Assembly: GCF_021057185.1 (NCBI RefSeq)
Contig: NZ_CP054059.1
Location: 1,020,001-1,052,000, forward strand
From: Candidatus Absconditicoccus praedator
Lineage (GTDB): Bacteria > Patescibacteriota > Gracilibacteria > Absconditabacterales > Absconditicoccaceae
Reading direction: 5' to 3'
Length of the DNA stretch: 32,000 bases
Notes under the pieces: generated by a model
Told to the model about the DNA's origin: nothing
The model's input: only the letters and a program-made list of their open reading frames with translations
Database searches by the model: none
In this document: positions 12,602 to 15,872 of the stretch, piece by piece
Numbering within the stretch: the first letter of the stretch is position 1
Layout: each line of letters opens with the position of its first letter
Program-made: the position numbers and the translations under genes

Positions 12602-14089
12602 CTACTTGAAATCTTGTATTATATTTTGATAATCATTGTATGCTTGTTTATTGTTTTTTAGTAATTTTTTAAAATTGTTTATAGCATAAATTACTGTTGC
12701 ATGATTTTTTCAACCAAAATAATCTCATATTTTTTCAAGTGTCCATCAAAAATGTTCTTTTGCAATATACATAAGCATTTGTCTTGCCATACTAACTTCT
12801 TTTTTTCTACTTTCTCATTTTATATCAAATATTCATATATCATAATAATTTGATACATATTCTACTATTTTTCAAAAGCTTTTGGTGTTTTTGGTATTTT
12901 TGTTTTCTGCATTTATTATGTTTACTTGTTGTTGCTCTGATTTGTCTATATTGTATCACAATGTTTGTAATGCTTCAAATATATCTTTTTCTCATATCTC
13001 TTGTTCTAACAAATTTTTTCTTGTCATTATTAAGTTTATTGCTCATTCAATTTCTCTAATATTGTCTTGTATGTTTTTTGCAAGAGTTTCACAAAGGCTT
13101 TGATCAAGTTGTTCTCATTTTTCCCTAAGCTTAGAATGTATTATAGCCAGTCTAGTTTCAAAGTCAGGTTTTTTAACATCTGTCACAAGTCAAAGTGCAA
13201 ATCTGCTTTTCAATCTTGCTTCCAGCAGATCAAGTTCTTTTGGTGGACGGTCAGAAGATATTATGATCTGTTTTTGATTTATATGAAAATCATTAAATAT
13301 ATTATGGAAAATTTCTTGAGTTTTTTCTTTGTTTGCTAAGAACTGAATATCATCAATGATAAGAACATCCACTTGTTCAAGTTTTTTCATCAAGTTGGAG
13401 AGAGTATTTTTTCTTATTGCCTCTACTATCTCATCAATAAGCTTTGTGCTTGGTAAATATACAATTGTTTTTTCGTTTTGAGTTTTCATTATATAGTTTC
13501 AGATAGCCTGCAGTAAGTGAGTTTTACCAAGTCATACATCTCAATATATAAAGAAAGGATTGTAAACTTTTCAGGGTGATTCTGATATTTTTTTGCTTGC
13601 AGAATATGCCAACTGATTGCTTCATCAAACTACAAAATTTTCAAATTTGTATCTTTGATCAAAAAGTATTCCAAAGAAATTTTTTAATTTTTCTTTTGTT
13701 TTTTTATCAATATTTTCTGGTGGAGTGTTTTTTTTGTTGTTGGTTCCCAAAATTTTTTGTATATTGATTTGTAGCTTATGTTTTCAGCTTTGAAATTTAC
13801 TATAAACTGCAATTTTTATTTTGAATCAGTCACTATAAACTTCTTGTATACTTGCTTCAAGCTCTTTTTTAAAAAATTTTTTTACTTGTGATTGAATAAA
13901 TTCATTTGGCACTCATATATATATTTCTTTTGTTTTTTCTTCAATACTCAAAATTCAGCATTTTCAAAGAAAAGAATATATTTTTTTGGGATCTTCTCTT
14001 GTTGATATATTTTTAATAGTTTTTTCCCGTAGGTTTTTAAGAAATTCTACTTTTTGAGTATCATAGTTTTCTACTGTATCAACAAGCAT
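12602..14089 (-). CDS. dnaA: chromosomal replication initiator protein DnaA
   Basis: ATG 14089..14087, TAG 12604..12602, 495 aa. Walker A GDVGLGKTHLLQAI lies at 13543..13520. It contains DVLIIDDIQFL, SSDRPPKEL and RLKSRFAL. The domain IV motif is ARQMLMYIAKEHFGWTLEKIGDYFGGKNHATVIYA. Confidence 0.95.
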
Positions 14090-14118: not shown

Positions 14119-15192
14119 TTATTCTTCTTTCACAAAAGCAAGTTGTTTTGCTTGATTTTCCATCATCACATCATTTATAATTTTATCTATTTCTCAGTTC
14201 ATTATTTGAGGTATATTAGACCAAGATTTTTTAATACGATGGTCTGTTATTCTATCTTGCGGGAAGTTGTAGGTCCTAATTTTTTCAGATCTGTCTCAGC
14301 TTCAAATTTGATTTGCTTTTTCTTCCTGAATTTTTTCGTGATGTTGTTTTTGTTCTATTTCATAAAGTCTTGATTTTAGAACCTGAAATGCCTTTTCTTT
14401 GTTTTGTAGCTGTGATTTTCATTCTCAAATAGTTACTATAATTCCAGTTGGTTTGTGAATTAGTCTAACTCAGGTTGCATTTTTATTTGCATTTTGTCAT
14501 CAAGCACTACTTGCTGCAAAAGTATGTAATTCTACATCATTTTTATTTAAATTGACTTGTACATCTTCAACTTCTGGCATTATACTTACTGTAACAGTTG
14601 ATGTATGAACTCTTCATCAGCTTTCTGTCTCTGGTATCCTTTGGACTCTATGAACTCAACTTTCAAATTTTAGCTTTGAGTATACATTTTCTCAGCTTAT
14701 TTTGATTATACATGATTTTAATCATCATATATCACTAATTTCTTCTTCAATTATTTCAGTTTTCCATCAAGCATATTCGGTATATCTTAGGTACATTCTC
14801 ATAAGTTCTAGAGCAAACAATCCAGCTTCATCTCATCATGCTGCTGGTCTTATTTCCATAAAAATATTTTTTTCATCATTTGGATCTTTTGGAAGCATAG
14901 CTATTTTAAATTTTTCATATATATCTTCTAGCATTTCTTCAGATTCTTGTTTTTGTGCTTTTGCCATTTCAATTAAATCTTCATCTTTTTCAGTATTTAT
15001 CATCTCTTTTGCCTCTTCTAGGCTATTGTGATATTTTTTGTAGTCTTGATATAGATTGTATGTTGGTTCAAGATTTGTAAGTTCTTTATTTAATTTTATC
15101 ATTTTTTCATTATCAGAAAAAACCTCTGGGTTACATAGTTCTTCTTTGATTTGATTATATCTTTTTTCTACTTCTTCAAGTTTTTGCCACAT
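14119..15192 (-). CDS. prfA: peptide chain release factor 1 (UAA/UAG-specific)
   Basis: 357 aa. RF1-type tripeptide region RIPETESGGRVHTS (PxT class, not the SPF of RF2). GGQ is encoded TGA-TGA-CAA at 14502..14494. It contains EIRPAAGGDEAGLFA. TAA at 14121..14119. Confidence 0.95.
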
Positions 15193-15206: not shown

Positions 15207-15872
15207 TTAATAAAATATATTACTTACTATCACAAACAATATTCAATAAATAAAATCTCCTATTTTTGCTGTTGTAGATTCAATAAAATTTCAAGTATAT
15301 GGAATAAATATAAGTAAAATTAATCCAAAAGCAAGATATATTCAATATTTTTCTATTATTTTTGAACTTTCAGGATAAAAAAATTTAACTAATCTAAATC
15401 AATCCAATGGTGGTATTGGCAATATATTTAATGCTGCCAGTATGATATTTATAAATGCTGTTAGGTACAAAAAAAGTAAAATAGAATTTTCCTCTACATT
15501 TATATTTGCTGGATGAGTGATTTCAAGCCAAAAAAATGAATAAGTAACAATCAATAAAACTGCAATTATTGCTATAAAAAAATTTATAAATGGTCAAGAA
15601 CTTGCTACAATTATTTGATCTTTGATAGGATTTTTATAAAAACTATAATTGGTTTGTGTATATTTTCATCGTCAGAAATTTATGAAAAAAACAGACAAAA
15701 ATCATAAAAAACTTAGATGTTTAATAGGATTGAGTGAGATTTTTCATTGAATTTTTGGTGTATGATCTCACAAAATATATGAAGTTAATGCATGAGTGAA
15801 TTCATGAACACTTATAGAAAAAATAAAGATTGTTGCAATAAAAACAATTTCTACTAAATCAAATCAAAACAT
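15207..15872 (-). CDS. M50 family site-2 protease-like membrane metalloprotease
   Basis: 221 aa. It has an HEFTH zinc motif, the second motif NILPIPPLDG (final Gly = TGA), and multiple TM segments. Confidence 0.85.

Follow-up and report, generated by a model that had tools for sequence, protein, structure and literature searches.

The peptide chain release factor 1 gene (prfA) of Candidatus Absconditicoccus praedator, located at 14119..15192 (-) of the window (the whole analysed stretch of DNA, 32,000 nucleotides long), is very probably an ordinary housekeeping prfA of the Absconditabacterales (candidate division SR1), which use genetic code 25, and the TGA-TGA spelling of the two glycines of its catalytic GGQ motif is best understood as synonymous codon drift. 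Such a spelling is to be expected under a code that is already known, and is a by-product of it that has not been selected for.

When translated with table 25, 14119..15192 (-) is an intact reading frame of 357 residues with 17 in-frame TGA codons, which are read as glycine and include G231 and G232. The minus-strand frame at the motif reads GCA AGT AGT GCT TGA TGA CAA AAT GCA, the catalytic tripeptide G231 G232 Q233 being encoded at 14494..14502 (-) by TGA (14502-14500), TGA (14499-14497) and CAA (14496-14494), exactly, to the base, as described in the first-pass annotation of this DNA. With table 11 the same frame is broken 17 times, the first break being at codon 119, in agreement with the earlier claim that no functional product can be made from this gene where UGA terminates.

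The product scores above the cut-offs of two RF1 equivalog models (NF001859, 466.2 bits with a cut-off of 400, and TIGR00019, 453.1 bits with a cut-off of 423.25) and below the cut-off of the RF2 model TIGR00020 (275.5 bits versus 370). The PxT tripeptide anticodon (P187 E188 T189, within RIPETE, at 14626..14634 (-)) is of the RF1 type, and the SPF motif is absent from the product, so that the initial assignment as an RF1-type factor (PET, not SPF) stands. The PxT tripeptide anticodon corresponds to UAA/UAG specificity, and in the relatives it takes the form P[D/A/E/...]T. The domain order is that of a full-length factor, with PCRF (PF03462) at residues 9-202 followed by RF-1 (PF00472) at residues 210-319. 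The best solved relative is the RF1 of S. mutans (1zbt, E 1e-99), and the product aligns end to end with the RF1 structures 1zbt and 5j30. Each of the features by which RF1 is recognised (equivalog score, domains, PxT and GGQ) is present, the GGQ motif only when TGA is read as glycine. The nearest named homologue is the RF1 of Candidatus Vampirococcus lugosii (70% identity), further close matches carry the labels Absconditabacterales or candidate division SR1, and the protein identity across the family is 52-73%. The gene is flanked directly downstream by dnaA (12602..14089 (-); Bac_DnaA 213.6 bits, Bac_DnaA_C 79.8 bits) and directly upstream by a gene of an M50-family peptidase (15207..15872 (-); PF02163, 63.2 bits). 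The dnaA gene lies 29 nt from prfA on the same strand, and the next gene is rlmN, not dnaN.

The reading of UGA as glycine in SR1 and Gracilibacteria, which is NCBI table 25, is reportedly described in work by Campbell et al. in 2013, Rinke et al. in 2013 and Hanke et al. in 2014. When the present gene is aligned with the RF1 sequences of six code-11 relatives of the same class, 12 of its 17 TGA codons match invariant glycines, both GGQ columns (G231 and G232) included; one more matches a mostly-glycine column, and none of the 17 falls on tryptophan. TGA codons are also found in the genes of glycyl-tRNA synthetase (GlyRS) and of a PrmC-like protein. The genome encodes a tRNA(UCA) at C1 c[383059,383132], reading gcgggca...tgcccgc-t, which has the glycine identity elements G1:C72, C2:G71, G3:C70 and U73, when the identity criteria of Shulgina and Eddy (PMC8629427) are applied. 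The tRNA-Gly(UCC) and tRNA-Gly(GCC) of this genome have the same GCGGG acceptor stem and U73 as this tRNA; tryptophan has a tRNA of its own, tRNA-Trp(CCA). Judging from these elements, the tRNA(UCA) is probably charged with glycine.

Several other components of this decoding system were seen in the genome. The GlyRS gene (C1:176522-177910 (+)), whose product must charge tRNA-Gly(UCA), itself contains at least 18 TGA codons, which is a tighter self-reference than that of RF1. The sole PrmC/HemK-like candidate for the glutamine methyltransferase of the GGQ motif is encoded at C1:782473-783231 (-) with 11 TGA codons; it scores 145 bits, under the equivalog cut-off of 199 of TIGR03534. Two further tRNAs, tRNA(UCG) and tRNA(CCG), at C1 c[324194,324267] and C1 [457200,457275], are arginine tRNAs by their anticodon label; their discriminator is G73, and their acceptor stem is like that of the tRNA-Trp(CCA) of this genome. 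A reassignment of CGA/CGG to tryptophan has been proposed for Absconditabacteria (PMC8629427), and the features of these two tRNAs are consistent with it. The prfA gene contains no CGA or CGG codon.

The genome is a single closed contig of 1,129,696 bp with 27.9% GC, which is scored as 100% complete. A whole-genome six-frame search with PF00472, PF03462 and TIGR00020, accepting E-values up to 10, found the prfA locus only. Four standard-code relatives from this class each supplied a second release-factor gene, three of these genes having the SPF motif; used as tblastn queries with genetic code 25, they matched prfA only (E ~1e-44), everything else having E > 1. The genome thus has a single class-I release factor, and no prfB, recognisable RF2 remnant or ArfB-type GGQ protein is present in it. 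The first-pass annotation had regarded the loss of RF2 as implied by the spelling of GGQ and had proposed a whole-genome search for prfB; the profile and tblastn searches of the closed genome bear this out, having found no prfB in addition to the prfA locus. In the comparison set, families of this class that use the standard code have two release-factor loci in most cases, with no in-frame TGA, and all code-25 genomes have a single release-factor locus. The features that identify code 25, which are TGA at conserved glycines, a tRNA(UCA) with glycine elements and the absence of RF2, are all found in this genome.

In this genome TGA is an ordinary codon, as shown by the codon counts of 929 ORFs, a crude, non-overlapping set defined with TAA and TAG as the only stops and not from a curated annotation. 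TGA is the commonest glycine codon (15,138 of 21,367 glycine codons, 70.8%), and TGA-TGA accounts for 744 of the 1,543 Gly-Gly pairs (48%). TGA is found in 911 of the 929 ORFs (98%), with a median of 12 TGA per ORF, and 24 of the 55 GGQ tripeptides encoded genome-wide start with TGA-TGA. The TGA-TGA spelling at the RF1 GGQ motif is therefore the modal spelling in this genome, and it is no more than what chance gives. In prfA itself, 17 of the 19 glycine codons are TGA (89%, compared with 71% in the genome; binomial P = 0.054). The termination machinery had been proposed to depend on tRNA-Gly(UCA). This tRNA is indeed present, but RF1 is no more dependent on it than other proteins are, because 98% of the ORFs, including that of GlyRS, contain TGA.

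The codons of the GGQ motif were compared among the prfA genes of 36 code-25 genomes, of which 35 belong to the GTDB family of this organism and one to another code-25 lineage within the class. In this sample the two glycines are spelled TGA-TGA in 16 genes (including the gene discussed here), with one TGA in nine and without TGA in 11, and in six standard-code relatives they are necessarily GGN; this is the comparison of code-25 and code-11 relatives that the first-pass annotation had suggested, and TGA-TGA is one of several spellings on the code-25 side. The number of TGA codons expected at the motif was calculated from the other glycine codons of each gene, with three standard-code rows left out. 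TGA is observed at 41 of the 72 GGQ glycines, with ~35 expected (SD ~3.7), and the double TGA in 16 genes, with ~11 expected; the genomes are kin, such that these counts are descriptive, and the slight excess of TGA across the 36 relatives is not significant. On the maximum-likelihood tree of RF1 the TGA-TGA state requires 9 to 11 changes, and its clustering on this tree does not exceed that of shuffled labels, 91 of 500 shuffles giving values as low. Well-supported sister pairs are unlike at the motif, being GGTGGG and TGATGA (L023 and L024), TGAGGA and TGATGA (L020 and L026) and TGATGA and GGTTGA (L005 and L006). The share of TGA among the glycine codons of the ~4-kb locus is strongly anticorrelated with the local GC content in 30 relatives (Spearman rho -0.82), and the TGA share of prfA in the relatives is as low as 1 of 19 glycine codons. 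This pattern suggests that GGN and TGA replace one another neutrally, as synonyms, under AT pressure, and this genome is at the AT-rich, TGA-rich extreme of the family. The view that the GGQ spelling of this gene is special is not retained: TGA-TGA is modal here, and it is common and evolutionarily labile among the relatives.

The sequence around the motif was also found to be a family trait. In the whole family the GGQ flank (window 14446-14517 (-), RF1 residues 226-249) is derived and reads (A/G)SS(A/S)GGQNANKNQTG; the canonical form, SGAGGQHVNKTDSA, persists in the code-11 relatives and in G057, the other lineage with code 25. The divergence of the SSAGGQNANKN form of the family from the canonical SGAGGQHVNKT drew attention, but it has a partial precedent, as the RF1 of S. 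mutans (1zbt) already has GGQNVNK (within GGQNVNKVATA).

The proposed sequence of events is a simple one. UGA would be decoded as glycine by the dedicated tRNA-Gly(UCA); RF2 has been lost, which leaves RF1 to terminate at UAA and UAG alone. With 27.9% GC the genome is under strong AT mutation pressure, which is probably the driving force, and the GGN glycine codons would largely have drifted to TGA, which now makes up ~71% of the glycine codons. The GGQ glycines of RF1 would be written TGA-TGA because this is the most probable Gly-Gly spelling in this genome, and no regulatory or special device would be involved. The excess of TGA at GGQ among the relatives and the TGA share of 17 of 19 in this prfA count against drift alone, and together they would allow for a small contribution of weak selection for TGA at critical glycines. 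It may be, though this is rather doubtful, that in the AT-richest Absconditabacterales tRNA-Gly(UCA) is the principal glycine decoder, and that TGA is preferred at critical glycines, such as those of the RF1 GGQ motif, by translational selection and not by AT drift alone.

A stronger form of selection, in which TGA at the GGQ motif is selectively maintained, either as a lock on the code that counteracts reversion or transfer, or by coupling the synthesis of RF1 to the supply of tRNA-Gly(UCA), is improbable. The coupling would be a loose analogue of the autoregulation of prfB via its in-frame UGA, but a feedback of that kind is impossible here, because without RF2 nothing competes at UGA. The small TGA excess in the 36 code-25 prfA genes (41 versus ~35, and 16 versus ~11 for both codons) and the high TGA share of this prfA (89% versus 71% genome-wide) are in the direction predicted by selective maintenance; however, the excess is within ~1.6 SD among related genomes, TGA is absent from the motif in 11 of the 36 relatives and present only once in another nine, sister taxa differ in their state, which shows no clustering on the tree, and the same lock would be present in 98% of the ORFs. 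If UGA were tryptophan (code 4) or still a stop codon, the gene would be a pseudogene or mis-read, and 38 of 120 close relatives in public protein collections (P0002-P0120) do have the motif written as WGQ, GWQ or WWQ. These entries are Trp-rich and Gly-poor overall, and they are evidently code-4 mistranslations of code-25 genes. In the gene discussed here TGA coincides with both universally invariant glycines of GGQ and with a further 10 invariant glycine columns and never with tryptophan, the tRNA(UCA) has the acceptor stem and U73 of the tRNA-Gly species of this genome next to a separate tRNA-Trp(CCA), and prfA is both the sole class-I release factor of a closed genome and conserved across the family (52-73% identity), such that the code-4 or stop reading is effectively refuted. 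A sequencing or assembly error at 14497-14502 as the source of TGA-TGA is equally hard to credit, as the identical TGATGACAA or TGATGACAG spelling recurs in this motif in another 15 genomes, each assembled independently, and there are 15 further TGA codons in prfA and ~15,000 in the genome.

The properties of this gene, as described above, are in good agreement with what has been published. The reading of UGA as glycine, the high usage of TGA, the tRNA-Gly(UCA) and the loss of RF2 are all already known for the clade: the direct proof of glycine at UGA, from proteomics, concerns a BD1-5 relative only (PMC4032931), a 'high usage of TGA as a glycine codon' has been noted with reference to Campbell et al. 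2013 (PMC10746230), prfB is absent and prfA is kept in all available BD1-5 genomes (PMC6851277), and reassigned lineages have tRNA-Gly(UCA) without RF2, whereas non-reassigned 'Gracilibacteria' have RF2 without that tRNA (PMC8629427). The literature was searched for papers on GGQ in combination with Absconditabacteria, and none was found; the remark on GGQ and TGA may be unpublished, and it is a direct corollary of the published facts.

When compared with other RF1 proteins of the Absconditabacterales/SR1 (for example of Candidatus Vampirococcus lugosii), the length, the PCRF and RF-1 domains, the PxT tripeptide and the GGQNANKN flank are alike, and many of these relatives, too, write GGQ as TGA-TGA; there is no difference of substance, the gene discussed here, with 17 of 19 glycine codons being TGA, being at the AT-rich end. 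The genome is an instance of NCBI genetic code 25, with TGA at conserved glycines, tRNA-Gly(UCA), RF2 absent and low GC (PMC8629427, PMC6851277, PMC4032931). The lineages using code 4 (Mycoplasmatales, Entomoplasmatales and insect endosymbionts) are similar in the loss of RF2, in having RF1 alone as class-I factor and in the takeover of UGA by a tRNA(UCA) (PMC4695839, PMC8629427). There UGA is tryptophan and here it is glycine, and under code 4 TGA can never occur in GGQ, whereas here TGA is the majority glycine codon and reaches catalytic motifs such as GGQ because glycine is common and GGN is GC-rich. The prfB gene (RF2), with its +1 frameshift, is also a release-factor gene with an in-frame UGA. 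In prfB this UGA is a true stop codon, which is read by the gene's own product and acts as a feedback sensor; in the prfA discussed here UGA is a plain sense codon that no factor recognises, and no frameshift is needed, because the ORF is continuous under table 25.

A different region of this genome was found in which TGA is not used. At C1:300132-302883 (L059:633-3384, + strand), six consecutive small ORFs of 115-225 residues contain 43 glycine codons and no TGA (P ~1e-23 at the genome share of 71%). This cluster has a GC content of 33-40%, compared with 27.9% for the genome, three of its ORFs have a prepilin N-terminal methylation motif (PF07963, best 35.8 bits), and it adjoins tRNA-Ile/Pro/Phe. 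The possibility that these are spurious ORFs over an rRNA operon was rejected, since Rfam gives tRNAs only in this region and no rRNA. The cluster resembles a type-IV-pilin-like cassette that is code-neutral and may have come from a donor with the standard code. It is more curious than the spelling of GGQ and deserves a look of its own.

The spelling of the GGQ motif adds nothing on the mechanism or the history of the reassignment, and its practical value is diagnostic only. Because GGQ is universally invariant, a TGA inside it tells code 25 (glycine) from code 4 (tryptophan), and it also exposes mistranslated database entries. If translational selection for TGA were true, a captured stop codon would have become an 'optimal' codon for an amino acid. 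The gene is mainly an illustration that in code-25 bacteria even the termination factor can have its catalytic motif spelled with what used to be a stop codon.
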